A DNA stretch of 63,105 nucleotides, counting the filler, from Folioceros fuciformis (Eukaryota): NCBI GenBank assembly GCA_049999805.1. It is 26 parts of 26 records of this genome, joined end to end, with 100 filler letters (N's around TTAATTAATTAA, not from the genome) between each part and the next. Parts side by side here need not be neighbours in the genome. Positions count along the whole stretch, not along the records: positions 1 to 6,536 come from JBNGIO010000001.1; 25 more parts are not named here. One strand, written 5' to 3'. The notes under the pieces are model-generated. The model ran no database searches, was not told the origin of the DNA, and saw only the letters and a program-made list of their open reading frames with translations. The stretch's first letter is position 1. Every line of letters starts with the position of its first letter. Of this stretch, positions 1 to 35,463 are shown piece by piece. Both the position numbers and the translations under genes were made by a program.

Positions 1-3
1 ACA

Positions 4-16
4 TGGTATCAGAGCC
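4..16 (+). promoter_or_regulatory. Primer-binding site (tRNA-iMet) of E1
   Basis: TGGTATCAGAGCC directly after LTR-terminal CA. Confidence 0.95.
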
Positions 17-52
17 TTTTAAGGATCTGATGTTTTTCTCTCGTTATCGATA

Positions 53-682
53 ATGCCTCGGCACGGTGGATCTGTCGGTCAGGGGCGTGGCTCACGTTTT
101 TGCAGATGTGACAATTACACACAAGCCCCTAGGACAGCTCCAGCCGGACTCAACGCCCTTGCATATTCACTGGTGGGAAGAACTGGTCTTTGTAACCAAA
201 ATTGGTCAAGGGACAGAGAGCGTGCCGAACTACTTCGGCAACTCCAGCAAAGGGATTTTCAAATTAGAGATTACCAGGCCCGTGACCGTTTTTACAAAGA
301 TCAGAGGAGGGATAGGCAGCAGAGGCAATCTCGCATACCGCGGGCATCTGCTGCTACTACCAACTCCAACAGACCACCAAGACCGATTCGATATGTGGAT
401 ACAGTTCCTTCTTCTAGTGGAGGCTCCTCCTGCGATTGCCACAACGAGGCCGCCTCTAGATTGCTGAATGCTTCCCTCAAAGAGATTCTCAACACAACAG
501 AATCAATCAACACAAGAATTTTCGTCAACAACATGCAAGCTCAGGCAAATTTTGATGCTTTCAACGAGAAATGGACATTGAAGATAAAGGAAATCACTGA
601 TCACCTGCAAAGATTGGAGATTGCTGCTCCGATCATTCAGCAGGCTGCAGTGTTCCCACATCTTCCACCTTCCGCTGCCTGA
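53..682 (+). CDS. E1 5' accessory ORF0, 209 aa, unknown function (Arg-rich N-half, helical/coiled-coil-like C-terminus)
   Basis: ATG 49 nt after PBS start; homologous to 36132..36689 (NALAY, WSRDRERAELLRQ, KIKE..D.L.R.EI.AP...SAA*) with synonymous codon differences. Confidence 0.8.
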   Translation: MPRHGGSVGQGRGSRFCRCDNYTQAPRTAPAGLNALAYSLVGRTGLCNQNWSRDRERAELLRQLQQRDFQIRDYQARDRFYKDQRRDRQQRQSRIPRASAATTNSNRPPRPIRYVDTVPSSSGGSSCDCHNEAASRLLNASLKEILNTTESINTRIFVNNMQAQANFDAFNEKWTLKIKEITDHLQRLEIAAPIIQQAAVFPHLPPSAA

Positions 683-1307
683 GAGCAACGAGGTGTGAGG
701 CGTCGCGTGTGTCTTCACGCCTCTTCGCACAGCATCGCCAGCTGGCAGAACGGCACACCTGGAGCTTTGAGGTCAGAAGTGCTGTGTTCTCTCCAGGCGA
801 AGGGCGCCCTGCGTGATGTGAAGCGCCAGACTGCAACCGCCGCGACCTATTCCGAAGCCGCGTTATGGTTGCTGCCAGATGTACAGAAGCAGGGATTCTT
901 GCGACTGTTGAGGCAGAGATTGACACCTGCTGCAACCCCTTTTGTTGTTCTCATGAGTCCTGAAGAGACGTCTTTGCTCCTGCTTAACTTGAAACTGAAA
1001 CACCAACCGTCGTTTCTTGCATAAGTTAGGGCAAAACTGAAGCGATAAGCTGTTTATTGTTTTTTTTCGTCCACAGTCTGTATGCATAGTAACAGGAGTT
1101 ATTGACCTTGGACATCAGCACACCTGAGCTAGGATAGCTTTTCTATCCCTTCTCCTGTATGCTGTTGACCAGGTAACAGCTCCTGCATCTTATCTTGTTA
1201 GGTACACATCAGTAGATGCTGTAATTTTCATAGCAAAGTCTTAAGGGCATTTTGTACTCTGACCTGTGTAGTTTGAGCCATAGCTCACATTACCTCGTTA
1301 GCTTCAT

Positions 1308-4300
1308 ATGTCCACAGGACCCCTCTTATCTGTGGATACCTTAAGTAGCTTGTTTCAAGCACTTAGTCTTGGACAGTTTGTAACCGCTGTAATCCATAAC
1401 CAGAATACTCCAGCAATCATGTCTACAGTAGTTAAACCCACATACACGTCAGAGCTGAAAGAAAAAGATCGGTTTAACGGCTCACACTACGCTGTCTGGC
1501 GTATCCGGATGAAGTCCATCTTGTTAGCCCGACGTGTCTGGAAAATAGTGGATGGGACTACCCCCCAGCCCGACCCCAATGCAACTCCAGCACCATCTGC
1601 AGATCAGATCGCTGAGTGGGATGAATTGAACAACATTGCAATTGCTCTACTAATAGCAGGATTGCATACTGACCTCATTTCCCAGGTCGAGTTTCTCGAC
1701 AAAGCTTCTGAAATCTGGACACAACTGGAGAAGACATACAAGGCTACAAATGTACTGACCCTTGTTGGTGTTAAGTATGAGTTTTATGCCTTGAGGATGA
1801 AAGAGGGGGATAAGGTAGCGGCTTTCACAAGTAAATTCCGTCACCTTAGAGCCCAGATGGCTTCTCTATCTAGTACGAAGATGGAGGAAGTAGATGCTGT
1901 GGCTGAACTCCTCGCGAGACTCCCTTCATCGTACCAATCCTTTGTTACTAGCCAGAATGGACCCTTGAGAGCTGCGAATGTTGCTGCTGCTGCTGGAAGT
2001 GCTGCAAACATCACATTAGAGGATGTCATAGGCGCTTTGTATCAGGAGGAGCAAAGCCGGATGTTTTCTTCAAACACTTCTAAAATTAGAAAGGAGAAGG
2101 CATTATTCACAGCTCCCAAATCATTCAAAGGCAAAGGAAAAGTTGGAGGTAAACCTGGCCAAGGTTCTAATTCCGCTGGTCCAACTAAACGTCTAGGCAA
2201 CTGCAATTGGTGTGGTATAGCTGGACATTGGGCCAGGGAATGCAAGAAAAAGAAGGCAGGGGAACCTAAACGTGCTCCTAAAAGCTCAACTAGTTCTGCA
2301 ACTGTTGTGATTAAGGAGAAGACATCTGGTGACACCAAACCTGTGGTGAAGATCCTAACAATTTGCCTTGCTCGTTCCATATGTGATGAAGATGGTTGGT
2401 ACTTGGATTCTGGTGCCACATCTCACATCTGCAGAAGCAAAGATCAGTTTTATGTGCTGCAATCTAACAGAATGGCTGAAAGAGTGCTGTTGGGAGATGA
2501 ACGACATCAGTCCAGTCTCCAAATCCATGGCAGTGGCATGTGTAAATTCACTTTGCACGATGGATCCATTTTTACCCTGGAAAATGTACTCTATGTGCCA
2601 TCCATGGCGAAGAACTTGGTCTCTCTCAGCAAACTGATGCAGCTTCGAGCATATGACATGACAGCTAGTGAGGATACTTGTCTCTTCTACAAGAGGTCAG
2701 AGCCTTCAATGCTGGCATTTAAAGGTACATTAGATCATGATCTGTATAGACTTGATTTATGCACCCTCCGACACCAAGCTAGCCTTGTCTCTGAGAAGTT
2801 CCAACGTCTTGCTGTCCTGTGGCACGCACGGCTTGGTCACGTTAATAAGAGAAAACTAGTTGACATGTCACTGCAAGAGTGCCACCTTGAGCCTCTTCCA
2901 CAGATTTTCAAGGACTTACCTTCTTGTGAAGCCTGCATTGTTGCTAAACAGAAGGCCCATCCCTTTCCAGTTTCAGCAACCTACAGAGCATCAGTTGTCC
3001 TTGAGTTAGTTCATGCAGACATCTCAGGTAAGATACATGTCCCATCTCTGGGTGGTTCTATATATTACCTCTGCATCACTGACGACTATTCTCGGTATAC
3101 TTGGACGTTCCCGATGCACTTGAAGAGTGATACATTCGAGCTCTTCTGTGATTGGCTATTGACTGCTGAAAAACAGACTGGTTCTTTTGTCAAGTACCTT
3201 CGGACTGACAATGGAACAGAATTCGTCAATGAGGCTTTTGATACATTCCTGCAAGAGAGGGGGATCCAACGTCAACTTACAATCCCCTACACTCCGCAAC
3301 AGAATGGCGTAGCTGAAAGGAAAAATCAAACCTTGCTGGCCATGACACGGAGTATGTTATTGTGGGTTAACTTACCTCAAGAGTATTGGGCTGAAGCCAT
3401 TGTTGCTGCCACCTATATTCTCAATCGACTTTTTACAAGTTCAGTCCCCTCTCAGACTCCATATGAGGCTTTCTGGAAACGCAAACCCAGTTTGCTACAT
3501 CTACGCGTGTTTGGTTCACGTGCTTTTGCTCTCATCCCAGAGGAGAAGCGGAAGAAGCTGGATCCGAGAGCCCAAGCACTTGTTTTTGTCGGGTATAGTG
3601 AGCAGTCCAAAGCTTACAAACTTTATGACCCTGCAAATCAGCGCGTTGTGTTAGCACGTTCTGTCACATTTCTTGAGATTGACAGGCCCCTCATAATCGG
3701 CCACCCAGCAGCAGAGGGAGAAAATGACATACCTCAGCTATCAGACGACGCTGTTCATTTTCCTGATAATGACACTCATGACGAGGGAGATGATACAACT
3801 GTCCAACCTGCTGATATTGCACCTCCCCCTGCTCAACCAGTCCTCATACCCCCTCCACCTGTACAGCATCAGCCGGCAAATGTTGCTGTTAATCCTGACC
3901 CTGATCCATATGAGTATGAGGATGTACCTTTCCCTAATCCAGATGCTGATCTAGCAGCTGGAGATGATGATTATCAAATGGTCATGGAACATGTACCTGA
4001 GGACGATGAACAGCCTTTTCCTGTTCAAGATGAAGAGCCAGATCCTCCTCTACGACGTTCTACCAGAAATCGTCCTCCACCAGAACAATGGAAAGAGCCA
4101 CGTTATGAATCAATCGACTTTAGAACAGCATATGCCGACATCTGCAATTCTGCTTCTAGCACTATACACCTGGAGCCCAAGTCTTTAACAGAAGCATATT
4201 CAGGTCCTGAACGAGATAAGTGGAAGTTTGCAGTAGACGATGAATACAATTCTCTCGTCAAGAATAACACGTGGAAGTTAGTAGACCTCCCACCTAGCAG

Positions 4301-5759
4301 AAAACCTATCTCCTGCAAGTGGGTTTTCAAGTTAAAGTTGAATGCTAAGGGAGAGATTGCCAGATATAAAGCACGACTGGTTGCAAGGGGATTCACGCAA
4401 GTGGAAGGGCTAGACTATCAGGAAACATTCTCTCCTATTGTTAGGGCACAGTCAATTAGGATGATAATCGCCCTAGCAGCCGAGTTTGACCTGGACTTGC
4501 AGCAAATGGACGTATGCACAGCTTTCTTGTATGGTGCGTTAGATGAAGACCTTTACATGGTACAGCCAGAAGGGTATGAAGACTCTAAGTATCCAAAGAA
4601 AGTTCTGAAGCTACTGAAGACCATTTATGGTCTGAAACAGAGTGGCAGAGTCTGGTATTTCACTATACATGAGCACTTGATTAACAACTCATTTGTTCAA
4701 AGCTCAACTGATGGTACTGTTTACAAGCTAATGAAGGGAACTGCCTACGTCATTCTAGCACTGTATGTTGATGACGTGATTTTGGCCACTAATAGCCAAC
4801 CCTTGTTAGCTGAGGTCAAAGAAATGCTGAGCAACAAGTTTGAAATGAAGGATATCGGTGAGCTACGTTTCTGCCTTGGCATTCAGTTACTAAGGGTCAG
4901 ACCTGAGAAGTTGATCATCATTCATCAGTATCAATATGTTCAAGAACTGCTACATAAGTTTAAGCTTGAACATGCCCGGCCATCTACTACACCATATGCT
5001 ATAGGGACTAAGCTCACTAGTCTGCAATGTCCACAAGGTGCAGATGAGGTGAGGGAGATGGCACAGGTCCCTTACAGGCATGCCATAGGAAGCTTAATTT
5101 TTATAGCTAATTGGACAAGACCGGACATCCAGTATTCAGTCAGCACCCTATCCCAATTTCTGGAAAATTCAGGTCGAGTTCATTGGCAGGCAGCCAAAAG
5201 TGTCTTCCGCTACCTAAAGGGTACTCAGTCCTATGGACTAGCATACAGAAGCACTGGACAGCAGAAACTTACGCTGAAAGGCTTCACAGATGCTGATTGG
5301 GCATCAGACACAGAATCACGTCGAAGCCTTTCTACATATTGTTTTCTCCTCTCCTCAGCTGTCACCAACTGGAGCTGCAAGAAACAAACATCAGTTGCCC
5401 TCTCGTCAACTGAGGCCGAGTACAAGAGTCTGACAGAGGCCTCTAAGGAGGCAGAGTGGATACGAACCTTTTTGACAGATTTGGGGCAACAGCAAACAGA
5501 GCCAACCCCACTTCTATGTGACAACATGTCCGCTCTTGCGCTTGTTGCAAATCCTAAATTTCATGCACGCACGAAACACATTGAAATTCAACATCACTAT
5601 GTTAGAGATGTGGTTCATCGTGGTATTATAAAGGTCTGCCATGTTCCAACAAATGAAAATACGGCAGACATCCTTACAAAGGGCCTTCCCAAGCATCTAC
5701 ACTACCAGCATATGGAAGGCCTAGGGCTTATTGATTTCACAGCCTATGAGCAGAACTAA
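1308..5759 (+). CDS. gag-pol: Copia Gag-Pol polyprotein, intact, 1483 aa (alternative ATG at 1419)
   Basis: Zn knuckle CNWCGIAGHWAREC; protease WYLDSGAT; LWHARLGH; integrase DDYSR / RTDNGTEF / QQNGVAERKN; RT YKARLVARG and YVDD; RNase H DADWA, EAEY, CDN, KHI, ADILTK; Copia domain order. Confidence 0.97.
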   Translation: MSTGPLLSVDTLSSLFQALSLGQFVTAVIHNQNTPAIMSTVVKPTYTSELKEKDRFNGSHYAVWRIRMKSILLARRVWKIVDGTTPQPDPNATPAPSADQIAEWDELNNIAIALLIAGLHTDLISQVEFLDKASEIWTQLEKTYKATNVLTLVGVKYEFYALRMKEGDKVAAFTSKFRHLRAQMASLSSTKMEEVDAVAELLARLPSSYQSFVTSQNGPLRAANVAAAAGSAANITLEDVIGALYQEEQSRMFSSNTSKIRKEKALFTAPKSFKGKGKVGGKPGQGSNSAGPTKRLGNCNWCGIAGHWARECKKKKAGEPKRAPKSSTSSATVVIKEKTSGDTKPVVKILTICLARSICDEDGWYLDSGATSHICRSKDQFYVLQSNRMAERVLLGDERHQSSLQIHGSGMCKFTLHDGSIFTLENVLYVPSMAKNLVSLSKLMQLRAYDMTASEDTCLFYKRSEPSMLAFKGTLDHDLYRLDLCTLRHQASLVSEKFQRLAVLWHARLGHVNKRKLVDMSLQECHLEPLPQIFKDLPSCEACIVAKQKAHPFPVSATYRASVVLELVHADISGKIHVPSLGGSIYYLCITDDYSRYTWTFPMHLKSDTFELFCDWLLTAEKQTGSFVKYLRTDNGTEFVNEAFDTFLQERGIQRQLTIPYTPQQNGVAERKNQTLLAMTRSMLLWVNLPQEYWAEAIVAATYILNRLFTSSVPSQTPYEAFWKRKPSLLHLRVFGSRAFALIPEEKRKKLDPRAQALVFVGYSEQSKAYKLYDPANQRVVLARSVTFLEIDRPLIIGHPAAEGENDIPQLSDDAVHFPDNDTHDEGDDTTVQPADIAPPPAQPVLIPPPPVQHQPANVAVNPDPDPYEYEDVPFPNPDADLAAGDDDYQMVMEHVPEDDEQPFPVQDEEPDPPLRRSTRNRPPPEQWKEPRYESIDFRTAYADICNSASSTIHLEPKSLTEAYSGPERDKWKFAVDDEYNSLVKNNTWKLVDLPPSRKPISCKWVFKLKLNAKGEIARYKARLVARGFTQVEGLDYQETFSPIVRAQSIRMIIALAAEFDLDLQQMDVCTAFLYGALDEDLYMVQPEGYEDSKYPKKVLKLLKTIYGLKQSGRVWYFTIHEHLINNSFVQSSTDGTVYKLMKGTAYVILALYVDDVILATNSQPLLAEVKEMLSNKFEMKDIGELRFCLGIQLLRVRPEKLIIIHQYQYVQELLHKFKLEHARPSTTPYAIGTKLTSLQCPQGADEVREMAQVPYRHAIGSLIFIANWTRPDIQYSVSTLSQFLENSGRVHWQAAKSVFRYLKGTQSYGLAYRSTGQQKLTLKGFTDADWASDTESRRSLSTYCFLLSSAVTNWSCKKQTSVALSSTEAEYKSLTEASKEAEWIRTFLTDLGQQQTEPTPLLCDNMSALALVANPKFHARTKHIEIQHHYVRDVVHRGIIKVCHVPTNENTADILTKGLPKHLHYQHMEGLGLIDFTAYEQN

Positions 5760-5840
5760 GTAACTCTGGAAAATCCTGACAAACCAGGTTGGATGAAGCT
5801 CCAGTTCAGCATCTAATCACCTGGCTATTTGGTTCGGCCT

Positions 5841-6278
5841 TCACTCCTCCTCTCTCGGCATCACGTCCTTAATTCTGTCCAGCATTTCAATGGTGTCCTC
5901 CAGCTGGCTGATCAAGGTCTGTTTCCCTTCCTCCTCAATAGCGTACAAAGGCAGATTAGGAGTTTCCCCTCGCTTCACCTTTCCCCAGATTAGGTTCACG
6001 CTCAGTTCCATGTGATAGGCACCCAAGTGAATCCTCTGGCCCCAGCACGTCTTGTAGTCCCAGTCCCAGCCGCGGGCAGTAGCCTGCCTCTTGTCCAGCA
6101 GCTCGTAAACATTAGCTGGCAGAGTCGGTATGCTGTTCTTCCTGTTTTTCCTCGGTCGCGCAGCTCCCTTGTACGCCTTGCCACTTCGAGTCTTCATGGC
6201 GCACCGCAGGAGAAGATGTATGCACAGGAAACACAGCAGTTCAGCTCCGGCGATCAAAGAGGCAAGGTTGCTAGCCAT
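5841..6278 (-). CDS. E1 antisense accessory ORF, 145 aa, N-terminal hydrophobic (TM/signal-like) helix then basic region
   Basis: ATG in GCCATGG context; LASLIAGAELLCFLCIHLLL then MKTRSGKAY; counterparts at the same position in E2 and E5. Confidence 0.7.
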   Translation of the reverse strand: MASNLASLIAGAELLCFLCIHLLLRCAMKTRSGKAYKGAARPRKNRKNSIPTLPANVYELLDKRQATARGWDWDYKTCWGQRIHLGAYHMELSVNLIWGKVKRGETPNLPLYAIEEEGKQTLISQLEDTIEMLDRIKDVMPREEE

Positions 6279-6503
6279 GGCTCCAGCACTTGGTTTTATT
6301 CTTCTTCGGGCTGCCGCGGTACAGAGATTGTTGGGCGCTACTCAAGCACAGTGCCAGGAACGTGACTGTGAAGTTATGAGTTTGAGTCGTCCAGCTGCTA
6401 TGAGCAGCTTCACGTGGCATCGCGTACCGCTTTCGTTTACGAAGGGTTTGCTTTAGGATGATGCCGGGCTTGTTTATTGTTCGTTAGTTAAGCTTATGAG
6501 CTT

Positions 6504-6512
6504 AAGAGGGGG
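6504..6512 (+). promoter_or_regulatory. Polypurine tract of E1
   Basis: AAGAGGGGG immediately before TGTTACGGG (3' LTR start). Confidence 0.9.
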
Positions 6513-6536
6513 TGTTACGGGTTAAGCTGCCATATG

Positions 6537-6636
6537 NNNNNNNNNNNNNNNNNNNNNNNNNNNNNNNNNNNNNNNNNNNNTTAATTAATTAANNNNNNNN
6601 NNNNNNNNNNNNNNNNNNNNNNNNNNNNNNNNNNNN
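6537..6636. other. Artificial contig linker (N44-TTAATTAATTAA-N44). First of 25; others start at 7683, 8829, 9973, 11116, 12259, 13391, 14522, 15637, 16752, 17862, 19004, 20113, 30499, 35937, 42037, 43160, 44294, 45426, 50822, 52316, 53524, 54673, 55781, 61349
   Basis: Identical 100-nt spacer each time; TTAATTAATTAA gives stops in all six frames; many flanking pieces are about 1.0 kb in roughly descending size. Confidence 0.98.
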
Positions 6637-11800: not shown

Positions 11801-13490
11801 ACAAGGCTGGAATAAGAAGGAAGAAACTCTCTATCGAATGAAATTGCAATGTTGATACTAGAATAGACATAGATATGGGCATAACATTGTTAGACGTAGG
11901 CTTGCACATTTGCCTTAAGTGGGGCTAGAGGGTGCCTTTGCCATATATAGTGGACATTTTAAAGGGCAGGACCACAACATTCTATTGCGAACCCTCAAGC
12001 GGTGGCAGCAAACACTTTAGTTATAGTTCAAAAATGAAGTGGTAGTCCATGCGGCAAACCAACCCTAAACTATAGATTTCCAAATGGAGTAAATCTTGAT
12101 TGGCTAAGAATTTGGCTAGCATTGAGAATTGACAAGGGAACATGTTATAGCAGTAAAGAAGGTGGTCATAATCATGGCAGGGCAATAACGAGGGTGGCCC
12201 TAAACCTTAGGCCAACGAAGCGAAGAGAGCCCCAACCCAATGGTGGCACTAATTCCGANNNNNNNNNNNNNNNNNNNNNNNNNNNNNNNNNNNNNNNNNN
12301 NNTTAATTAATTAANNNNNNNNNNNNNNNNNNNNNNNNNNNNNNNNNNNNNNNNNNNNGTCCTCCTCTTGTGACTCAGCCTACCTGCATCCTCCGACTCG
12401 TCCCACAGCCCCTCTACTCGATCGCCCCGCTTCTTTCCAGCGCCCCTGTCCTCATCCACAACCTCAGAAAACCCGTCTTGCTCCTCGCCCCGACCTCGCC
12501 TCCCTGCCGGCTCCTTCTCGCTCTTACCTTTCCTCGACTTCCCATACCTATGCCGCCGATCCGACTCTTCCCACTCCCCTTCCCTACCCTTGTAGTACTC
12601 GGAGCCCTCCGAGATCTTCCGCCGTTTAGCGAGGTCGTGCTCCTTACTGCTGCCTTCGGGGCTATCCATGGATGCCCCTGCTCAAGCTGCTGCAGCAGAG
12701 TAGGGCAAAGTCCGCACGGACTGAAACAATGCCTCTTTCCAACAGGTCTCATCATCGTGCAGAGACCCGGGAGCCTCCATTTTCACCCGCACGTATCACA
12801 AATTCAGCAACCCGTAACCCCTAAACATTCCTAAATACTCCACCTCCTGCCACGATCTCCGCATGCCTGTTCTTTCACCCTGATAAAGGTTGGGCCAGCA
12901 TTCCCGGACTCTCCCAAACCCTAAAACCGGGCAATCACCAACTCCCGCTTCCTAAACCATGTTCCGCAGACAGGACACAGCATGCCCGAACGCTCCGCCA
13001 CAACCAATCCAACCAACAAACCCTTTCTGGACGTTTGCAAGCAGAGTAGGTTGCCAGACAAGACGCCGTCACCTCAGAGGCTGGACAGCCAAACTCCCAC
13101 AACCAATTTCCGCTGCTGCCTCCTGAACTTGAGCGCTCAAGACCAAGGCAAATCTACGGAACTCCAATTCGAAGTCCAGCCCCCATTCCCACAGCACACC
13201 CGATACCCAAGCGACTGTAGCTTCGCCCCAGACACAAGGTCAGACCAACCAGCGTGACGCTCCACCCGCAGCGCCCATTGCTAAAGTGGCCGCAGCAAGA
13301 TGCAACTTAACGGTGCAAAAATCACTCCATCTGCCGCCTAGAAAATATGAGAAATCAAGCAGCACAGCCAACAAAAGAGCTGTGCCGGGANNNNNNNNNN
13401 NNNNNNNNNNNNNNNNNNNNNNNNNNNNNNNNNNTTAATTAATTAANNNNNNNNNNNNNNNNNNNNNNNNNNNNNNNNNNNNNNNNNNNN

Positions 13491-14497
13491 CCGAGCTTGA
13501 GGTTCTCGTTGAAGAGACTGAAGAGGTAGACGTCGAGGCCCGCGTCTGGGCGGGCAGGGGTGGAGATGTTACCCTCCAGACGCTTCACCAGGTTGTAGAC
13601 GTAGGATTGCGCGTTCACCACATTGACGCCAACCTCATCGGCGTCTCCCGCCCAGGGCCACCCCGACTCGGACACCACCACGGCCAGGTTAACGATGCCG
13701 ATGTTGGCCAGAGCGTAGTACACGGCGTCCACCTGGGCGGAGAAGAGGTTGGAGTAGTGGATGCCGGTGCGGTTGTCCGTCTCGCCGTCGTTAGGTCCCT
13801 GTCCCAGCGCGTAGAGTCGGTCCTGTTCCGTGCGCTGCCCATCGCGGTAGGCGAAGTAGGGGTAGGCGTTCACCATGAAGCTGGAGCCGGTGTGCACCAG
13901 GAAGGCGGCCAGGGGCGTCAGGAGCCGGGCCAGGTAGGGCTTGAACACGGTGACGGAGGGCGGGAAGGACGGCGCCAGAATCTCCAGCGAGTGCGGGGTG
14001 GACACCTTGACGGCGGAGTCCAGCTTCAGGTTCACCAACGCCGTGTGGATGTTGGACATGGCGGGGAGGAGGAGAGTGCGCATGCTGTCCGAGGTCTCGT
14101 TGCTCGTCAGCACCTCGTTCCCTACTGCGATGACCCGGATGTCCGTGGCCGGCATGAAGGCGTGGACGTGCCGCTCCACCCACTCCTGCGCGTAGCCGCG
14201 CACTCCTCGGGAGAGGCACTCTATGACATCATTCGGCACTCCCACCACCACCTGAATCCCGCTGTTGGCCAGCGCCTTCAGCACCGCCGGGTTAGTGTCG
14301 TAGATCTTCACCTTCCGCACCGTGGTCTTGAGGATGAGCGCCACTGCCGCCTCGGGACTGGGCAGGTTATCGGCCACCGTGCCGTAGTTGATGCCAAGGC
14401 TACTTCCCGCCTCTGCACGTGAAACAATTCCGTCACCTTCTGCCTCTGTCATCCAAGAAATGCAGCACTCCGGCAACAACAAGGCAACGCAACTCAA
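13491..14497 (-). CDS. Glucan endo-1,3-beta-glucosidase (GH17), partial, 3' end truncated
   Basis: LGINYGTVADNLPSP, VKIYD, IAVGNEV (acid/base Glu), FMVNAYPYF, VVVSESGWP (nucleophile Glu), YLFSLFNENLK; exact 5' start uncertain. Confidence 0.95.
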
Positions 14498-15427: not shown

Positions 15428-16689
15428 CTTCCTCTCCTCTTCCGCGCCCCCGCCGTGCTCCGTCACCGACCCCGCCAGCACGCACTTCGCATGCACACCA
15501 GTCCCCCACTGCACCGCCGCAAATTGCACCTGACCCGGAGAACTCGCCTTCCGCGCCAGGAATTGACGTGGCAGCGACTGGCACAGCGAGCCAAACCTAC
15601 ATACACTGCTCAGCGCAAAGGTTGCAGGCATTGCAANNNNNNNNNNNNNNNNNNNNNNNNNNNNNNNNNNNNNNNNNNNNTTAATTAATTAANNNNNNNN
15701 NNNNNNNNNNNNNNNNNNNNNNNNNNNNNNNNNNNNGTCCCATACTATCTCTCTCTCTCTAACTTTCTCTCTCTCTCTAACTCTAGGGGTGACTTACCTC
15801 TCCTGGTTCACTCAAAACTTACTCGATGTTCCGGGGTTCCACACTACTCCCGGTGCTCACGACTACACAACCTCACACCCCGAGCATCACCACTCACTTG
15901 CCGATGCCACGCTCACTCACGGCCACGATCAGGCACCCCTCTCCCCATACACGCAACAGCTCACAATGAATCCCCGCGACTTCCTCATGCGCACATGCAT
16001 CAATCACATGGACACACGACTCAGGCTAAAACCTCCCCTCAGACCGCTCTCATCACACCATACAGCAAATCGGGTCCACACACAACAAACACGCTCCCTA
16101 CTCTCAAGCACACACTCCCAGCTCCACTCCAGACACCAGTCCGCTCAATCTTGGGGCTCTCGCTTAGCCCGCCTGCAACTCACACACACACACAAGGGTA
16201 ATCCCCACGGTAACAATCAGTTAACACCACCCCGGGCACACACCACGGTGCCTTCAGAGTCACTCCGTTTCCTCAATAACTCACACTCCGGACTCGGCAC
16301 GATCTCTCGGCCGGGCACTTACTGACATCAGACACATCAACCTCACTGACTCCTCAGCCCGCGGCGACCCGCCGTGCACACAACTAGTACAGCCACGCAT
16401 CGAAACTCAGATTTTCCACACACTGGATTTCTTTCCCTCACCTACGCTTGTGACTTTCTTGTCGACGCACTCCGACTCCGATCGGCAGTCACTCAACCTC
16501 ACTCTCACATGACACTCACTCACCAACTCCTCTCCTCCTCACACAACTTTTCACGTTTCCCTCTTCACACTCGACTCACTCAACTCACTGCTCTCGACTC
16601 TTCCTTCTCGTTTTGCCCTTCATCGGGCCTTCTCCTCTCTCTCTCTCGTTGTTTAAGGAGGCAGTGAGAACATCAGAGGGTAAGGGATG

Positions 16690-22318: not shown

Positions 22319-24275
22319 TGGTATCAGAGCAGGATCCCTTCCCTCTGATCATTGATCTCATCCATACCAGCCACACCATAATGCCCCGCCAATTGCGACC
22401 TAGTGCCTGGTGATCAGAGGCTTAAGGCGCCTTGCAAAGAAGGCAAAGAAAAAAAAAAGCCAAATACCTTCAATGGCAAAGGTCCAACAGAGAGATTCAA
22501 TACCTCAAAGAGGCACAGGAAAACCTTTGTCATTATGGCTGGTTCAGGACCTGCGGTGTCCTACTTTTTAATTGGCGAAGAACTACTCCTCATAGGTCAC
22601 CTAGAACATAATGATTATGACTTCTCATACATCCAGGTAGAATACCTCTTCCATCAACAATGAAAAGGGAATTTACCACATGTCTAGACATCATCGCTCC
22701 CATCTCACTCACAGAAAGTAATCTCTCACCTCAGTTCTCTATGTAGACAGCACAACCTCTTCATGCTCCCATCTGCGAAGGAAATTCAAGAAACACAAAC
22801 CTCAATAATACATAAAATCAACAGTCTAGACGAATCACATTCCCACATCAAATTCCCTCAACGAACTTACAGAGTTGTCCTCGCCATGCAGTTAGATGTA
22901 TCTAGTATAATTAGAAACACTGTCTTCAGCGTTTAGAACGCCACCAACACCATGTCCTCCCACACCAGCCTGTCCAAAGAAGACAAGTTTGATGGTTAGT
23001 AGCAAACCTTTCCAACATGGAAATGTAGAATAAAAATATCCTAAAGGAGAGAAAATTATGGGGCTACGTAGAAGGCATAGGCAACCCCCCTGTTCCCATA
23101 GCCTACCCAACCAACGGAACAACAAAAGAAAAGGAGGACTAGGAAGACGCTAATCAACAAGCACACAACGTGATCATCCAGGCTATGCGTCATGGGAATG
23201 TCCAACAGATCGAAAACACAGACACTAGACACTGCAGCAGCTGCCTGGCAGCAATTGCACGATATAATATTATGCACACCGTACACACTTCTTTGGCCTG
23301 CGCACACAAGAGGGAGGTCTCGTTGACCAACATACTATGCACTTCCGTAGCTGGTCAACAAAATTCAAGGCCACTGGATTTGCCCTTACCAAAGATCTTT
23401 CTGCTGCCCTACTCCTTTCCACGCTGCCCGAGTCCTGGGTTAGTGTTGTGTAGTCCCTTCAAGGAGTAACCCCCCTGACAGTCAACAAAGTTATTAGCTC
23501 TATGCTAACAGAAGAAGCAAGACGCAAATTATCCAACACTTTTTATGCTGGAGAATCTTCCTCCAGCGCCTATTTTACAGGCAAAAGATTTAGGGGTAGG
23601 GGCCCTGGCATGGGAGGACAACCACATCCCCGTGGACCGGGCAATTATTAGGGTACTTACCATAGTCGAGGAAGAGGATACTACAATCCCCCTTGGAAAC
23701 CCGTCTGCGGGTACTGTAAAATTCTAGGACATACCTATGAGGAATGTCGGAAAAGACAAGCTGCAAACAACCCACAACGTCGACGTGAGCAGATAGGACA
23801 ACTCGCCCTCACAATAGAAAGACATACAAGAGCATATTTAACACACACACCTCAATCATCCCAAGATCAGCTAGATCAACCAAGTTCCTCTAATCCAACA
23901 GCTTATGTGGCATCCTGCCTTGCACCTCAGGGACATCACACATGGTACATTGACTCAGGTGCCTCCCAACACATGACATGGAACCTAGAATACTTCACAG
24001 AGATCAACCCTACACAGCCACCTCAGTATGTTAGTCTAGGAGATGACTCCAGACACAAAATACAGGGTCATGGGTCCTTCAAAATTAACCTTAAAACAAC
24101 ATCTACCTTGCACATATCAGGCGTTCTTTATGTACCAGGGCTTACAAAGAACCTTTTCTCAGTTAGAAAGGTAGATGAATCAAGCTATTACGTATGCTTC
24201 GGGGATGGTCACTGCATCATTGAAACCCCGCAAAGGGAACTCCTTGCTACAGGAGCCTTACAAAACAACGACTTG
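22319..24275 (+). pseudogene. Decayed Ty1/Copia 5' half (PBS, accessory-ORF remnants, gag, protease) related to E3, interrupted by a Gypsy insertion
   Basis: CA then TGGTATCAGAGC at 22319; ILKERKLWGYVEG; HTWYIDSGASQHMT and VLYVPGLTKNLFSVRKVD closely match E3; many frameshifts and stops. Confidence 0.88.
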
Positions 24276-24611
24276 TGTTACGGGGCAGCTCTGGATTCCG
24301 GCTTTGGGAAAATGGACGTTCTCTTCATGTTCGGATTCGCTACAAATACATGTGTGCGAGCAGTGCCAAGAAGGATGTGCCTGCCCGCCTAACTACCCTA
24401 CTTCTTGGGATTCTACTGGTATAACAATTTAGTTATCCGGATATCCTATATACTGGCATTTATCTATTTAATTAGTATCTGTTTAATTATTTCGTATCAG
24501 CTGGGCATTCGCTAAAACCATGAGTGTTTCGTAGGGTTCCTGCTACCTGTTTCGTGGTAGCTTCGGTTCCTCGGCGGATGACTTGAGTGGCCTGCTCGTC
24601 ATCACGTTTCA
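24276..24611 (-). repeat. 3' LTR of the chromovirus (336 bp)
   Basis: Matches 30176-30498 apart from about 15 substitutions and two indels (counted by eye). Confidence 0.95.
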
Positions 24612-27600
24612 TTCTCCCCCACTTGCTGGGGCTGGGTCCTCCTGGCCATCTGGAATCTGCTCGCGCAAACGGGGGAACTGTAGATAGAAATCCTCGGGTT
24701 CCCATGTTGCTGCTGAATCGGGCTCGCCCTCCCACGCAACCAGGAAGTCACGGATGTGTCGGTGCCGGAGGTGCCGGTCTCGACGTTGGAGGATGCGGGT
24801 CGGTTGGTGGGGTATTGGTGATACCGTCGGGAGGGGTTCAGAGGGAAGACTGTGGCTGGCCTCCGAAGAGGGAATGGGAGTCTGTGTCCTAGAATGGGTG
24901 ACTGAGGGTTGGCTGGTTACTAGCACAGACTCAACTGGTGTCGGCAATGAGGGAAGTTCAGCACGGCAGTGGATCATTGGTTTCAACAGGGACACATGGA
25001 ATGTTCAGCAGAGGCGCCAAACGGCGGGCAGTTCAAGCTGGTACGTGACCTTGTTGATGCGTTTCAACACCCGGAAAGGACCTGCAAAGCGGTAGGTTGC
25101 GTTGCTGAATCATGTCAGGATACCTGTGGGGCTTGACTCGGAGCCAAACAAACTGGCCAACGGAGTAGTTGATGTCGCGTCGGTGACGGTTTGCTGTGAT
25201 GCAGGTCTGGTCTTGTGTTGCTTGGAGTTTTGTCGAGCCATCTTGGCCTCGTGCCATATGTCCTCGGCGATTTCAACAGCGCTTCGCCACTTGTCTTGAC
25301 TGTTGGGCCATAAGCCTGAAGGTGGGGGTGTCTCACCATACAGGAGTTTGAAGGGAGTAACCCCTGTGGCTGCGTGCTTCAAGGAATTGTACGCATACTC
25401 CAATAAGGGAAGGAGTTCCTCCCACTTCGTCTGCTTCTCGTATGTGACGAAGCATGTCTTCTAACACCTGATTCTGCTTCTCTGTCTGGCCGTCCGTCTT
25501 TGGGTGATAGGCTGAAGACATGTTCTGTTTGATGCCTAGTGTGTCCATGAAGTTCCGCCAAAACCCGAAGGTGAATTTCGCGTCCTTGTCCGACACAATG
25601 TCCTCTGGTGTTTCGTGTAATCGGAAGATTTCACGGACAAAAAGGGTGGCCAGTTTGGGGGCAGTGATGGTCGAGGTGACTGGAATGAAGTGGTAGACCT
25701 TGGAAAACCTACCTGTCACCACCTACATGCTGTCCTTACCAGAGCGGGTACGAGGTAGGTGTGTAATGAAGTCCATGGCTATTGACAGCCACTGGGGATT
25801 TGGAGGGGTTGGAGTAGACCTGGGTATTTCTGATGGCTAGGTTTGGCTTGTTGGTAGGATTGACAGGAGCGCACCTACTCTATGCAATCGGAGCGCATGC
25901 CTTCCCAGTGGAAATGTTCCTGAACCTTGGCATAGGTTTTGTCAATACCCAAGTGCCCCAAGATTGGGGAATCATGCAGATAATGGAGGATGGCCTGTTT
26001 GACAGCAGTGAGCTAGGAGGGGATGACCAACCGGTCCTTACGGTAAACACAGGCATCCTTGAGGGAATAGAGTTGGGTAAGTGCTGTGGGAATACTTGTT
26101 GCTGCATCTGCTAAGAAATTTTGATACAGCTGCCACAACTCTAGGTCTTGAGGCAATCCATCCCGGACTAACTGCACCGTTTGGGACTGTGTGGTCATGA
26201 GTGTGCAGGCTCTCCTGCTCAAGGCATCTGCGACCACGTTAGAAGTCCCAGTGACATACTTGATCCCGAGGTCAAAATCCGCCAGGTATTTGGCCCACCT
26301 GCGTTGTCTGGAGTTGAGGTTGGGTTGTGAGAAGAAATGTTGCAAGGAGTGGTGGTATGTGTGACACACCACCTTCTGGCCTAAAAGGTAAGGCCTCCAC
26401 ACCTTGAGAGCGTGGGTGATCGCCAACACCTCTTTGTCATGTATAGCGTAATTCAACTGTGCCCCTTGCAACTTCCTAGATTCTTAGACAATAGCTCGAC
26501 CCTGTTGTGACAGTACTGCACCCATAGCAAAATCTGATGCGTCTATGTGCAGGGTGTATGGGGCTTGGGGGTCTGCCACCGCTAGCACGGGAGCCGACCT
26601 AAGGGCTTGCTTGAGCTATTCAAATGCCTGGATGGCCGCTGGCCCCAATTGTAAGGGTTTGATGGTTGAGTGCCTGAGGGCATTCGTTAGGGGAACAACT
26701 ATCTTACTGAAACTTTAGATGGAGCGGCGGTAAAATCCGGCCATGCCCAGGAACCCACGTAGTTTGTGTGATATCCTGGGGTAGGGGCCAGTCCACCACG
26801 GCTTTGACCTTGCGGGGATCTACCCGGATACATGTTGCACTAATGATGTGGCCCAGGTATTCACAATCTTGCCTCATGAAGTCACACTTACTTCTTTTGG
26901 CCAACAACTTGTTTGCACGTAGCAGCTCAAGTACCTTTCTGACCAAGGTGTAATGTTTCTCTAGGTCAGGTGTGTATATGAGGATGTCGTTGAGGAAAAC
27001 TTCTACGCCGTGCCCCAACAATGGTCGTAAGATGTCTTGCATGAGACATTGGAATGTTGCAGGTGCGTTTGTCAAGCCAAACGGCATGACCCTGAACTCG
27101 AAGTGGCCATGTTTTGTGCGGAAGGCGGTTTTAGACTCATCCCCTTCCTTGATCCTGATCTGGTGGAAGCCGGATCTCAGATCAATCTTGGTAAACCACT
27201 TTGCATCGTGAAGTTGGTCCAGGATCTCATCGATCCTCGGCATCTGGTAGACATTTCTGACTGTGGCCCGGTTGAGTCCTCGATAGTCAATGCATAGTCG
27301 CCAACCACCATCTGGTTTGCCAACAAGAAGGACTGGGGCTCCGAAGGGGGACACTGAAGGGCATACAAACCCTTTCTGTAGAAGTTCGCCTACTTGTTTT
27401 TTTATTTCCTCGTTTTCAGTGGCTAACGTACGGTATCGCTGGATACTGATGGGTTTATGGCCTGGCAGGAGCGCTATGGCATGGTCGATAGGACGTCTAG
27501 GGGGGAGTTTTGCTGGTTCAGTGAACACATCTTGGAACTCCTGTAGTAGTGACTTCATGGTGGGTGGTAGGAGTTCCTCATGAGCCTTGGCTTCTACAGC

Positions 27601-29414
27601 TCTGGACTCTGGGGTTCCTTCTAGGGGTAAGACTTTTTTCAGCTTAGCTACGTACATGAACCTGCCAGAGGCAATGGCTATATTGAAAGCAGATACTGCA
27701 AACAACTGTTTGTCGGGGGTATACTGTTCACCCTGCATGGTGTATGTCTTGTCCCCCTTTGTAAGACTCACTATGTTAGACAACTAGTCTATGTCTAATG
27801 TGTGGGTATGCTTGGCCAGCCAGGGCTTACTAATAATGATGTCATGACACAAGGACGGCATTACAGTCAGCTTGAAGACTTTTGCAAAACCACATGGGAA
27901 GGTGATTAGTGCATTAGTCCACTCTTGTTGGTTTCATGCTCGCCCAACGGTGTCACTACTATGGACACATGTCCTGAGGTACGGATCTGCAAGCCAACCT
28001 TTTCATCAGCGGATCTTGACACATAATGATGATTGGCACCAGAGTCTAGCAGGGCTTTGGCTCGGGCACCTTCTAGACCAACCTCTAGTTTGATGGGCAC
28101 GTGGGTCAGGTAACCCTCTTGGAGATTTGACTTCCTTGAGATCATTGCAGCTATGGCATGGGTACTGACCTCGGTTGTGTTGATGGCATGTCCGCTCTTG
28201 GGAGGGTTTGGGTTTGGGTTTGGTTGGCTCACTCTGGTGGTCTTCCCAGTTTCTCTCAACCAGCTGATGAAGTCCTTGCGGAAAGGGCAGTTCTTTGAAC
28301 CGTGGTCTTGTGCCATGCAAGTGAAACATTTCCTCTTCTCACTATATCCCTTCTTCTCCTCCTCCATCAGTATTTTGAAAGTTGGTTTCTTGTTTGACGC
28401 GTTAGCTGTCTTGTTCCACTTAGGCTTGGAGGGACCTGCGGAAGAGAAGTGTTTGTATTTGTTCATACCATAATTGATGGCTGCTCGCATCGCTTCGACC
28501 AAAGTTGCTAGGTTTGTTTGGTTCACATCCGCTCTCATGTTGAATTTCAGTCCGTCGATGAATTTCTCGATCTTTTGCTCCTCATCCAGCCTGGGCATGT
28601 CAAGTGTGAGTTGGAGAAACTTATCACAGTACTCTTGTACACTACCTTGTTGGAATATCTTTCGGAATTGTTGATACAAGTCTCTGCGATGATTCACCGG
28701 CAGGAACTGTTCCAAGAAGAGCTACTTGAGGACTGGCCAGGAGTACACAGGCGGTTCCATGCCGAGGTCCACCTGTTTTTCTCTCTAGCGCCACCAACGG
28801 TAGGCATATCCTTCAAGCGACATCACGTAGAACGGGATCTTTTGCAAATCGTCTTTGTCAAAGGCTACAAGGTACTTGTTGAGTTTGTCCAACCAGTCAT
28901 GCACACTTTGAGCATCTTTGGCACTTCCGTCCAACGTTGTGGTCTTGATTTTCTGGTGTAACTCCTTGTCGAGCTGGGGCTTCGGTTTGAACGGGTATTC
29001 TTCTCCCCCTTGAGCTTCTCCACTCGATCGACCTCGTTGGCGCTCCCAATGCTCATATCTCATCATCTGCAGATGCCTCACCATTGCTTTGATGTCTTTG
29101 TTCTCTTCCTCGCCAGGTTGGAGTTCTACGATGAGTTTCTTCCTCAACTCCCCTTCCTCCAGGTGGGATTCCCTCTCAGCACAAGGTACGGTGGTGTACC
29201 TCCGTTCTTCTCCCCTTCCCTTGTCTTGATGGGTTGCTCCTGATAGTCTTCCATCCACAGGTGTGGAGAGGTGTGTCCCGTCCATCGATGGTACGGGTCT
29301 GGTCACCTCAGCGTCCGAGGGTGGGAATTGGTGAGCGCCTGGGGGTGTTGGTTGCTCCAGCGTCTGGAGCACACCCTCTAGCTGCCTCTCCAGTCGGGCT
29401 TGGCCCTCCCCCAC
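24609..29414 (-). pseudogene. gag-pol: Gypsy gag-pol, fragmented
   Basis: Gag QQGSVQEYCDKF and CFTCMAQDHGSKNCP; PR ALLDSGANH; RT WRLCIDYRGLN, MPFGLTNAPATFQ, FLNDILIY (catalytic D lost); RH NYAIHDKEVLAI; IN SAYHPKTDGQTE; chromodomain FLVAWEGEPDSAATWEPE. Confidence 0.93.
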
Positions 29415-30175
29415 CTGGACTTCGATCCGATCGACAGCCCGCTTCTACCTTAGCCAGCTGTTGGTCTTGTCGAGACAAGGATGAGCGCAGTTCGTCGCAG
29501 GTATGTTTGACGTTGGCTGTCCTTTCCTCCATTCTTCGCAAGGTGTCTGTTCGATTTGCTTCACTCCCGGTTGGCTCACCTATTGTGTTCTGTGCAGGAG
29601 GGTGGCGTGATTCCGCTGGAGTGCTGTGCTTCCTCGGGCGTCCACGTTGCCGGCTTACCTACTATGAGGCATAGTCAGCAAGAATTCATGGAGCGTCCGG
29701 TTTGGGGTCCAACCTCTGCAACCGATTCTCGACCTCCTCTCGAGCCAGGAGGCGGCGAGTGTGTTCCCGGCTCTGGCGCTCCTGGGGAGCCGGCACTTCT
29801 GCGATTTATGGCCCCAGTGGTGGAACAAGGGGGAGATGGCCTCCTGAGGAATCGTGGAGGTGCTACTGTGCGCGGCGGCACACCCTCTCTCCAATTCCTT
29901 TGAATGGGTCTTCTTCCTCGCTTGCGCTGGAGATTGCTGGTTCCTCTGCTAGGGTCAAGGCGCGACTATCCATGCTACCTTTCTTGGAGAAATTTCCAAG
30001 ACTCCTCCTGGTTTCTGCCCTCCTCCTGGTTGGTCCGTTCTCTGTCGCTGGTGATGGTTGCTGGGAAGCTGCTGCTACCACCTCTAGGTGCTCCCGAACT
30101 CGGCCTCTAGATCCTGGCTGCCGACCTTGATCCTAGATCTAAGGGTGGCTAGCTCATAGGCTCTGATACCAAAGA

Positions 30176-30498
30176 TGTTACGGGGCAGCTCTGGATTCCA
30201 ACTTTGGGAAAATGGACGTTCTCTTCATGTTCGGATTCGCTACAAATACATGTGTGTGAGCAGTGCCAAGAAGGTTGTGCCTGCCCGCCTAACTACCCTA
30301 CTTCTCGGGATTCTACTGGTATAACAATTTTTAGTTATCTAGATATCCTGTATATTGGCATTTATCTATTTAATTAGTTCGTATCAGCTGGGTATTCGCT
30401 AAAACCATGAGTGTTTTGTAGGGTTCATGCTACCTATTTCGTGGTAGCTTCGGTTCCTTGGCGGATGACTTGAGTGGCCTGCTTGTCATCACGTTTCA
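30176..30498 (-). repeat. 5' LTR of the chromovirus (323 bp)
   Basis: TGAAACG...GTAACA on minus strand, followed 4 nt later by the PBS. Confidence 0.95.
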
Positions 30499-30833
30499 NN
30501 NNNNNNNNNNNNNNNNNNNNNNNNNNNNNNNNNNNNNNNNNNTTAATTAATTAANNNNNNNNNNNNNNNNNNNNNNNNNNNNNNNNNNNNNNNNNNNNAC
30601 CTGTATGTCTAACCTATGTTAGGGTTAGACACGCCTATACTAACACTCCCACTCAGGTCTTAGAGTTAGGATGTGTACTATTTATAGTTTGTGTTTATAG
30701 ATATAGAAATATATATGTATGTTTTGTTCACTACTTAACTGCTACGAAACGCAAACAAACCTAGCTAAAGAAACTTGATTATCCTGCAAAGAAACTCGTC
30801 AGCCCTAAGCAGGAATCGCCGCCCCTTCAGACT

Positions 30834-33800: not shown

Positions 33801-35165
33801 GGAGAGGGCCTGCTCTTCCGTCACATCTAAATGATATAGGTCGTCCTGCTGTAGGTGTCCAGTGGCCAAGAGGGTGCCATCCTTGTTCTCGACGACACAT
33901 CTACCATCTCCAAAACACACATAGCAGCCCGACTGGTCAATTTTCCGAACTGAAACAAGATTCTTCGCTAGTCCAGGTACATACAGCACATCCGGAATTT
34001 CCAGGTGCTGATCAGGCTTCAGGTCGAGCTGTACAGTCCCCTGTCCAGCAATCGCATGCTGGGAGTTGTCTCCTAGGCACACAAACTTGGCAGGTGTGCT
34101 CTCGTTCAACTCTGTAAAGTATGCAGCATACGGTGTCATATGCTGAGAGGCTCCGCTGTCGATATACCAGGTGTGTGCAGGTTGGCTGGCGAAACAGGTG
34201 ACTACATTGCATTGTTTAGAAGAGTGATCTCGAGGTGAGGTCACTGAGGTGTCATAAATAACACTTGTACAAAATGCTCTGCTGTACTTCTGCATGGTCA
34301 CTGCCAGGTGCCCTGAAGGTCCACCTTCTCCAGCCAGTCTCTTGCGGCAGACTTCCCAGGTGTGATTTGTCATGCCGCAGTGCCCACATGGGGGCCTTCC
34401 TCTGCCACTACCAGAATTTTGAGGCCTAGAGCTAGTGCCTCGGCCTCTGCCTCGGCCTCTACCAAATGGACGACCTCGACCTCGACCTCTGCCAGGTTTG
34501 CCAGTCCACAGGGCCTTGTCTCCTCCTCCAGAGAGAGACGAACTTGCAATTTTCCTTCGAGATTCTTCTGTGAGCATGGCTGCTATCACACGATTGACTG
34601 AAATAGCTTGTATGCCTTGCAGGCCCTGAACCACACTTGACCATGTCTCGGGCAAGGTGGTGAGGAGGATGACCGCCAGGAGCTCCTCCTCAATATTGAA
34701 GCCTGCTGATACCACTCTTGCTCTTGAGTTACGGAACTCGAGTACATGCTGATCCACGGAGTCTGACTCCTTCATTTTCAGGCTCATAAATTGTCTAAGT
34801 ACAAATGTTTGCAGCATGAGATCCCTTGAATCGTACAATGCCTTGATTTGTCTCCACCAGGCAGCAGCACTCTCTTCTGCACCTTGAAACACTCCGGTAT
34901 GGCTGCTCTTTACACTGAAGTGCAGCAAGGTACGCGCCAACTGGTCAGCCTCCTCCCATGCAACCACTTCTTCTGGTGTGGCTCCAACTCCTGGCTTGGG
35001 TGTGGGTACGGGAGGTTTACCCACACCATAGACGTGTGCCCACAGTTTTCTCGATTTGAGAATCTCCTCCATGCTTTTCTGCCATACATGATAATTAGAT
35101 CCATCAAACTTATCCTCCTTTGGTATGTTGATTGCAGGATGTTGAGGAGTCTGCTGCTGGGCCAT
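30834..35165 (-). pseudogene. gag-pol: E3 Gag-Pol with a stop at 31944-31946, a frameshift near 31930 and a stop at 31683-31685
   Basis: GR-repeat plus CGHCGMTNHTWEVC; WYIDSGAS; RSDNGGEY; YKARLVAKG; YVDD; YSDADWG; KHI; ADILTK. Confidence 0.93.
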
Positions 35166-35181
35166 GTTCTTGGACTGCCCC

Positions 35182-35463
35182 TTAGGGCTTCAGGCTCAGC
35201 CAGTCGGCCTTGAGGGAAGCTTCTTTCCCTGTCTCCTTGCAAATATGCAGTTTAACTCTCAAGGTATTGGCCTCAGTCAATGCATGTTCCAGGCGTATGT
35301 TGTACAGGATATGAGAGGCAAACTGCTTGATGACATAAAGTGGCTGATAAACTTGTGCTTTGTAAAACAGGCACGTCACATGATAATGCAGATGCACAAA
35401 GGCTTCATCTGCTGTTATTGGGAGGTGCAGGTCCAGGATCTCCTCGCTGGAAAGGAGCAACAT
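35182..35463 (-). CDS. E3 5' accessory ORF B, 93 aa, unknown function
   Basis: ATG 5 nt after the ORF A stop; stop 16 nt before the gag ATG; weak homologue (LDIIAPIS vs LDLHLPIT) at 22660 onward. Confidence 0.5.
   Translation of the reverse strand: MLLLSSEEILDLHLPITADEAFVHLHYHVTCLFYKAQVYQPLYVIKQFASHILYNIRLEHALTEANTLRVKLHICKETGKEASLKADWLSLKP

Follow-up and report, generated by a model that had tools for sequence, protein, structure and literature searches.

Elements of the Ty1/Copia group are treated as the simplest long terminal repeat (LTR) retrotransposons, with one open reading frame (ORF) for Gag-Pol. The stretch of Folioceros fuciformis DNA analysed here (GenBank assembly GCA_049999805.1; 63,105 nucleotides (nt), filler included, and referred to as the window) raises the question of whether a Copia lineage carries genes beyond Gag-Pol. 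At positions 1-6536 the sequence-only reading of this DNA had recognized a Copia element with an accessory module of three parts, namely an ORF upstream of gag (ORF0), an antisense gene downstream of pol and a conserved hairpin. ORF0 passed a test of coding constraint, whereas the antisense gene failed cross-validation and the hairpin was not shown to be a structure. The interpretation favoured here, to which a probability of roughly 0.55 is assigned, is that the clade has gained additional genes, ORF0 being coding and the antisense frame being kept in all three lineages available.

The window consists of 26 separate short contigs with 25 identical artificial linkers (44 N, TTAATTAATTAA, 44 N) between them. 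Three of the contigs, designated E1 (1-6536), E2 (36037-42036) and E5 (55881-61348), are separate LTR-less Ty1/Copia internal regions. Their ends lie 3-50 nt within LTRs, and no LTR was found in any of the three; assembly was evidently interrupted at the repeated LTRs, which accounts for their absence and leaves the order of the pieces without genomic meaning. E1 starts with ACA, the final bases of the 5' LTR, followed by a primer binding site (PBS; TGGTATCAGAGCC, 4-16, plus strand) that we take to be complementary to the 3' terminus of initiator tRNA-Met. It terminates 24 nt beyond the polypurine tract (PPT; AAGAGGGGG, 6504-6512, plus strand), in a stub of the 3' LTR that starts with TG (6513-6536), and a Logan contig from a public run terminates at the identical base, 6536. 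In E2, 47 nt precede the PBS (36084-36096, plus strand) and 47 nt follow the PPT (AAGAGGGAG, 41981-41989, plus strand), while E5 is cut by the contig end 55 nt upstream of the gag ATG and has the PPT AAGGGGG at 61279-61285 (plus strand). TG directly follows each of the three PPTs. The PBS sequence TGGTATCAGAGC occurs in both E1 and E2, and matches to the PBS with at most one mismatch number 7 in the window against 0.39 expected.

The order of features in E1 is PBS, ORF0, gag-pol, a 9-nt motif, antisense ORF and PPT, exactly as had been proposed, and E2 has the identical order; E5 has gag-pol, motif, antisense ORF and PPT. The description of E1 as intact holds for its reading frames only, as no LTR is present. 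The repetition of the whole layout in E2 and of its 3' part in E5 was likewise confirmed, but both of these copies are defective, E2 through a stop in RNase H and a loss in gag, and E5 through a break in integrase.

The gag-pol gene of E1 (1308-5759, plus strand) is uninterrupted and encodes 1483 amino acids (aa) with GAG, PR, INT and RT, RNase H being assigned by position. Pfam domains were found in the order Retrotran_gag_2 (68-251), Pol_BBD (364-445), gag_pre-integrs (478-548), rve (567-663), SH3_retrovirus (724-790) and RVT_2 (986-1230). The same order was found in E2 and E5, and this Copia arrangement, GAG-PR-INT-RT(-RH), upholds the affiliation made earlier. In E2 the gag-pol frame (36951-41231, plus strand) starts with an ATG at 36951 and ends at 41229-31; its RNase H is interrupted by an in-frame stop (40932-34), and gag lacks its initial portion (DUF4219 region). 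In E5 gag-pol (55936-60868, plus strand) is divided into two overlapping frames, 55936-58644 and 58385-60868, with the integrase frame break between 58385 and 58644. The E5 Gag is also extended at its N-terminus by about 190 aa of Gly/Pro-rich, low-complexity sequence (55936-56520), an extension absent from E1. Gag-Pol of E1 and E2 are 60% identical (799/1337), and for E5 the figure is 49-51% against either of them. Two more distant Copia pieces of the window, E3 (30599-35936, minus strand) and E4 (45526-50821), share only 31-41% Gag-Pol identity with E1, E2 and E5, and by this protein comparison the latter three are one deeply diverged plant Ty1/Copia clade.

ORF0 occupies 53-682 (plus strand) in E1, where it encodes 209 aa with a Gly/Arg-rich N-terminus followed by long predicted helices, and 36132-36689 (plus strand) in E2, where it encodes 185 aa. 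Its start has the same location in the two elements, 36-37 nt downstream of the PBS. The two proteins are identical at 82 of 210 positions (39%, E 1e-39), so that the earlier statement that the copies keep their accessory proteins is correct for ORF0; for the antisense protein, only an open frame and an architecture are kept. Over 184 aligned codons the differences between E1 and E2 at codon positions 1, 2 and 3 amount to 71, 63 and 106, and the proportions of non-synonymous (pN) and synonymous (pS) differences are 0.342 and 0.735. The corresponding values are 0.322 and 0.769 for the gag control and 0.162 and 0.915 for RT, ORF0 being similar to gag and less constrained than RT. Since synonymous sites are saturated, the ratio of about 0.15 for ORF0 is a rough figure only. 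Compared with dinucleotide shuffles of the leader (2000 for each element), the length of the ORF counted from its ATG had p 0.0015 in E1 and 0.0075 in E2, and a codon-usage score trained on gag-pol genes, stops excluded, placed the ORF0 frame first of six in both. On account of this homology, third-position excess, ORF length and codon usage, ORF0 is regarded as a protein-coding gene that, as far as two sequences can tell, has been maintained by purifying selection since the divergence of E1 and E2.

The alternative that neither ORF encodes a functional protein, the ORF0 region being a cis-acting RNA leader (for packaging, dimerisation or primer use) that is open by chance, draws on DNA conservation that continues past the ORF0 stop. 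E1 and E2 are 71% identical there over 157 nt, and the conserved non-coding block extends across and beyond the stop at 664-800 in E1, with its counterpart at 36671-36821 in E2 (both plus strand). In a consensus fold of these two sequences a stem-loop with 31 predicted pairs begins at the UGA, and 5 of the 31 pairs are preserved through changes on both sides. The lack of an ORF0 homologue in the collections searched, described below, would also fit a leader. Nevertheless, a leader of this kind does not explain the excess of third-position differences, a pN far below pS, the many synonymous changes between E1 and E2 within the first 16 codons of ORF0, or the length of the ORF in both elements, and it is considered highly improbable.

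The same block may act as a readthrough signal, a reinitiation signal or a packaging element, and the first of these bears on another explanation, in which ORF0 is the N-terminal part of Gag, joined to it by readthrough, splicing or frameshifting, so that an extended Gag and no accessory protein would be made. In E2 the stop of ORF0 is followed by 31 open codons, and a second stop then separates these from gag-pol in the same frame; in E1 the frame is open for 113 codons beyond the UGA. Over the first 10 or so post-stop codons E1 and E2 differ at second and third positions only, the conserved stem-loop begins at the UGA itself, and the Gag proteins of E4 and E5 have N-terminal extensions of 180-190 aa. 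On the other hand, E1, the only copy with an open gag-pol, has ORF0 and gag-pol in different frames, separated by 626 nt with 7-15 stops in each frame. The similarity beyond the stop tails off after roughly 35 codons, and ORF0 resembles neither gag nor the extensions of E4 and E5. An extended Gag is considered improbable. Duplication of gag as the source of ORF0 was rejected on the same comparison (hhalign probability 0.2%).

A search for relatives of ORF0 gave no Pfam family and no plant mobile domain, no match at E <=0.001 in a word-indexed set of 5.8 billion proteins, 0 matches of its profile among 1.84 billion representative proteins and 0 matches among PDB sequences. In metagenome contigs 595 pattern matches were obtained, of which 0 were confirmed, and the Protein Atlas contained no usable match for ORF0 or for the antisense protein. 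These blanks weigh little, since the collections evidently contain few plant retrotransposons: the best database match to the Gag-PR-INT of this lineage was 27% identical, and 4 of 7999 scored candidates reached E <=1e-10. In the low-confidence AlphaFold model of ORF0 the Gly/Arg-rich N-terminus is disordered, and helices span residues 50-93 and 128-198. From the comparison of E1 and E2, ORF0 is considered a solid new orphan accessory gene of this Copia clade.

An ORF upstream of gag was also noted in the more distant pieces. In E3 it has 79 aa and starts with MPG. In E4 an ORF of 196 aa, starting with MPRNG, lies ahead of gag and overlaps it, the E4 Gag having an N-terminal extension of 180 aa. 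In all four elements with a leader present (E1-E4) the pre-gag ORF starts with Met-Pro and continues with a basic stretch. The E4 ORF (46118-46708) was ranked first of six frames by codon usage; it was rejected as a homologue of ORF0, to which it has no similarity (E 24), and its weak match to 15904-15990 was due to low-complexity sequence.

The second candidate gene lies between pol and the PPT on the minus strand. In E1 it is an ORF of 145 aa (5841-6278) and in E5 an ORF of 100 aa (60946-61248). In E2 the frame extends over 41414-41854, of which 41414-41782 form an ORF with an ATG (122 aa), the frame being open upstream of it to 41854. From stop to stop the open frames have 166, 146 and at least 112 codons in E1, E2 and E5, with p 0.0035, 0.0305 and 0.126 against shuffles, and the three values combine to about 0.001 by Fisher's method. 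For the sense strand of these regions p was 0.17, 0.54 and 0.14. Comparison of the three 3' regions with blastn disclosed no DNA similarity at E <=0.01, and in DNA that can no longer be aligned neutral decay should have closed these frames.

A common design was recognized in 3 of 3 antisense products, with a hydrophobic segment at residues 3-23 (5-23 in E1 and E5) followed by a basic stretch. The maxima of Kyte-Doolittle hydropathy over 19 residues are 2.15, 1.95 and 2.05 in E1, E2 and E5 and start at residues 3-5, while the 35 residues after the segment contain 10, 10 and 13 lysines or arginines. As background, 11 of the 79 ORFs of at least 90 aa in the window reach a value of 1.6 within their first 45 residues, a count that includes the E1 and E5 antisense ORFs themselves. 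The E2 and E5 products are reciprocal best non-self tblastn matches in the window over 120-124 residues (E 0.067 and 0.098, calculated with no composition correction), and BLASTP gave E 0.047 for this pair. Such similarity near the limit of detection is expected for a small accessory protein at 50% Gag-Pol identity.

Several results weigh against an antisense gene and, in part, against the favoured interpretation as a whole. The copies available are two for ORF0 and three for the antisense ORF, and E2 and E5 are defective. BLASTP of the antisense products gave E 50 for E1 and E2 and no alignment for E1 and E5. In Smith-Waterman comparisons of all 6x6 frames the antisense pair ranked third of 36 for E1/E2 and fourth for E1/E5, and came first for E2/E5 by one point only. 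Hidden Markov models (HMMs) built from two members failed to recover the third among 562 open frames, with E1 fifth among the non-self matches (E 0.38) and E5 and E2 outside the six best. The codon-usage score placed the antisense frame second, first and third of six in E1, E2 and E5. In E5 an overlapping sense ORF of 124 aa is longer than the antisense ORF, and in E2 the hydrophobic segment is situated in the upstream open part of the frame, with no ATG before it. A related contig from runs X1 and X2 skips 115 nt of the antisense ORF of E1, a length not divisible by three. Finally, the models of both proteins are of low confidence, with a pLDDT (predicted local distance difference test) of 55.9 for ORF0 and 52.5 for the antisense protein, which was modelled as all-helical.

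These failures, together with the marginal tests, are what one would see if ORF0 were the only gene and the antisense frames resulted from base composition or from a conserved 3' region acting in cis. Their hydrophobic starts would then stem from T-rich second codon positions and not from a conserved protein. Codon usage does not single out the antisense frame, and E5, with p only 0.126 and a longer sense ORF, adds to this. Moreover, spurious antisense ORFs of 97-175 codons are present inside gag-pol of the same elements, and gag-pol holds 16 out-of-frame or antisense ORFs of at least 80 codons. Yet this explanation has to accommodate three of three lineages that keep the frame open in unalignable DNA, a hydrophobic-then-basic start at the same residues in each, and a sense strand that in E1 and E2 is not comparably open. 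We judge it possible, though rather unlikely. Under the interpretation with additional genes, which is preferred, the antisense ORF is a reasonable candidate and probably a real, fast-evolving gene, as judged from its open frames and shared design.

Searches with the antisense proteins gave no Pfam family at E <=0.01 for any of the three. Their profile had one match among PDB sequences, the MS2 coat protein (E 0.0063), with no passing stretch, and this was taken as spurious. In addition to the 115 nt (5884-6000), the contig of runs X1 and X2 skips 87 nt within ORF0 (112-200), which is a multiple of three.

The 9-nt motif GGATGAAGC had been described as a conserved hairpin. It is located at 5791-5799 in E1, within a possible stem-loop (5784-5826), at 41387-41395 in E2 and at 60904-60912 in E5. 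Four copies occur in the window against 0.71 expected, a number reached in 0 of 100 shuffles; three are at the homologous place, 32-156 nt past the end of pol and 19-42 nt away from the stop codon of the antisense ORF, and the fourth is within gag of E4. Folds of 82-86 nt at the motif, on both strands, were not more stable than those of shuffled sequences (z -1.95 to +0.53), and the consensus fold of the three sequences is weak (-3.46 kcal/mol, 11 pairs, 3 with compensatory changes). What is conserved is therefore a 9-mer, as the stems are no better than those of shuffles, and it is regarded as a conserved motif, not as a demonstrated hairpin. Possibly it serves the antisense unit as a 3' signal, or acts in cis in the genomic RNA.

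A possible mechanism may be outlined. The ORF0 protein, an orphan that is basic and largely helical with an RGG-like N-terminus, would act on the RNA of the element itself, in a role such as chaperone, packaging or translation control. Because ORF0 (185-209 codons) is the first long cistron that ribosomes would meet on the genomic RNA, it must limit their access to gag-pol, which they might then reach by reinitiation, through internal entry or on a processed RNA. Two features around ORF0 are candidate controls of this passage. One is the structured block at the ORF0 stop; the other is a mini-upstream ORF, which in E1 has 7 codons (30-53, plus strand) and a stop that overlaps the ORF0 start (TAATG), and in E2 has 6 codons (36109-36129, plus strand) and ends 2 nt upstream of the ORF0 ATG. 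A promoter within the 3' LTR or at its margin would drive the antisense unit; the start of the unit was placed there because the antisense ATG of E5 is no more than about 37 nt from the PPT. Its product would be a small, fast-evolving, basic protein, either signal-anchored in a membrane or secreted. The fullest version of this scheme, in which a complex Copia element combines an RNA-binding ORF0 governing the balance of translation against packaging with a small antisense membrane protein expressed from the 3' LTR, after the pattern of retroviral HBZ and ASP, and which would be the first such set described in Pseudoviridae, is speculative and considered unlikely. The roles in silencing suppression and movement suggested by the sequence-only reading found no support.

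Comparison with known elements agreed with the earlier placement in the literature, as far as the accessible parts of the sources extend: 5' and antisense 3' additional ORFs (aORFs) in Gypsy elements (Tekay, Ogre, Tat/Retand, Grande, RIRE2) and a sense ORF in the Copia lineage SIRE. Antisense ORFs behind pol are reported, in the passages seen, for the Gypsy elements Grande, RIRE2 and Retand and for 15 bean families, and gene23 of Grande is described there as having its own promoter and a nuclear product (Vicient and Casacuberta 2020, PMC7264820; Gao et al. 2014, PMC4093653; a study of Retand, PMC11963269). The candidate described here resembles these aORF-3R genes (Grande gene23, RIRE2, Retand, bean ORF2) in being antisense and placed between pol and the PPT or 3' LTR, in evolving fast and in the absence of homologues outside the elements. 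It differs in that theirs have about 200-940 aa, many with Transposase_28 or SMC-like domains, whereas here the element is Copia and the protein has 100-145 aa, no Pfam domain and a hydrophobic start. With a Copia domain order, only position and orientation agree with the Retand/Tat-type aORF-3R.

ORFs ahead of gag are likewise reported, within the available text of PMC11728184 and PMC4093653, in Tekay (Retrosat2 ORF0, RIRE3/8, sunflower Tekay 13-2) and as ORF1 of Ogre. They share with ORF0 a sense orientation, a location between the 5' LTR/PBS and gag, and an orphan product that is largely disordered with few helices and conserved within the lineage; they belong to Gypsy chromoviruses and Ogre and have about 400 aa or more, in contrast to 185-209 aa in the present Copia elements. 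The position of the ORF agrees with the Tekay/Ogre type, while the element is Copia.

For Copia, the only extra ORF reported in the accessible portions of PMC6317226 and PMC4093653 is the sense env-like ORF of SIRE. That ORF also lies between pol and the 3' LTR of a Copia element and can encode a transmembrane segment; it is in sense orientation and long (381-393 aa in bean), whereas the candidate here is antisense and short. No long sense ORF of the SIRE type was found in the 3' regions, where the longest sense ORFs with an ATG have 108, 62 and 124 aa in E1, E2 and E5. In the part consulted of Neumann et al. 2019 (PMC6317226), extra ORFs are recorded in 582 Copia elements and 45 similarity groups, only those of at least 250 codons being counted, and with surveys limited in this manner small accessory genes would have been missed. 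The same source states that Osser and Bryco Copia lineages have a PBS complementary to a half-molecule of tRNA-Met. In a review, additional ORFs are said to occur across most LTR-retrotransposon lineages.

Antisense genes at the 3' end with a promoter in the 3' LTR are represented by HBZ of HTLV-1 and ASP of HIV-1. ASP is a small hydrophobic, membrane-associated protein. The likeness is in position and in an LTR promoter, which for the present elements is only proposed; the elements and hosts are unrelated, and there is no sequence relation. The HTLV antisense promoter is mentioned in the text seen of PMC7264820. In yeast, antisense RNAs of Ty1 lower retrotransposition according to a 2025 review (PMC12786077). 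These too are antisense transcripts of a Copia-type element; they differ in being non-coding and in covering the 5' part, whereas the unit proposed here is 3'-terminal and retains an ORF.

A Copia element combining a 5' ORF with an antisense 3' ORF was not encountered in the searchable full-text literature, and it is plausible that this architecture is undescribed in Copia. A conserved cistron before gag poses the problem of how ribosomes reach gag-pol past an ORF of about 200 codons and offers a candidate for a regulator encoded by the element. If real, the antisense gene would mean that antisense coding occurs in Copia as well as in Gypsy elements and retroviruses. The present value of these observations is that of a lead, resting on two to three copies.

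Further copies and sequence variation were also inspected. Alignment of the 5' and 3' regions to the window by blastn gave no additional fragments. A gag profile identified 4 loci in metagenome contigs, at 23-36% identity; the one that was examined (L001) is an ordinary Copia element with no extra ORFs of at least 80 aa outside gag-pol. Logan contigs differ from E1 at about 10-12 positions per 2.3 kb, too few for a ratio of non-synonymous to synonymous substitution rates (dN/dS). Run X3 showed a bisulfite-like pattern on 1-6536 (562 C>T, 593 G>A) and was excluded from the analysis of variation. No RNA data set was listed among those containing the stretch; from run X4, guessed to be RNA, 2 contigs matched over about 40 nt each, in conserved pol.

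Of the remaining pieces of the window, E3 has 235 nt from the pol stop to the contig end, which leaves no room for an antisense ORF, and pol of E4 is truncated after integrase. The linkers (the first at 6537-6636, with 24 further sites) make adjacency across them biologically meaningless, and apparent repeats that span them, including the repeat family D1, are in part a linker artefact. A Gypsy-type LTR retrotransposon is present on the minus strand at 24276-30498, with LTRs at 24276-24611 and 30176-30498 that are 94-97% alike, a tRNA-Met-type PBS at 30160-30171, RVT_1 at 26704-27738 and a protease-like ORF. It is apparently inserted in another element, recognized by its PBS (22319) and by an ORF resembling a Copia protease (23973-24392). 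The only clear host gene seen is an intronless GH17 (beta-1,3-glucanase) gene on the minus strand at 13439-14452, encoding 337 aa; it is most like plant beta-1,3-glucanases, which marks the host as a plant, and its best solved-structure match is a conifer pollen allergen glucanase (E 8e-66).

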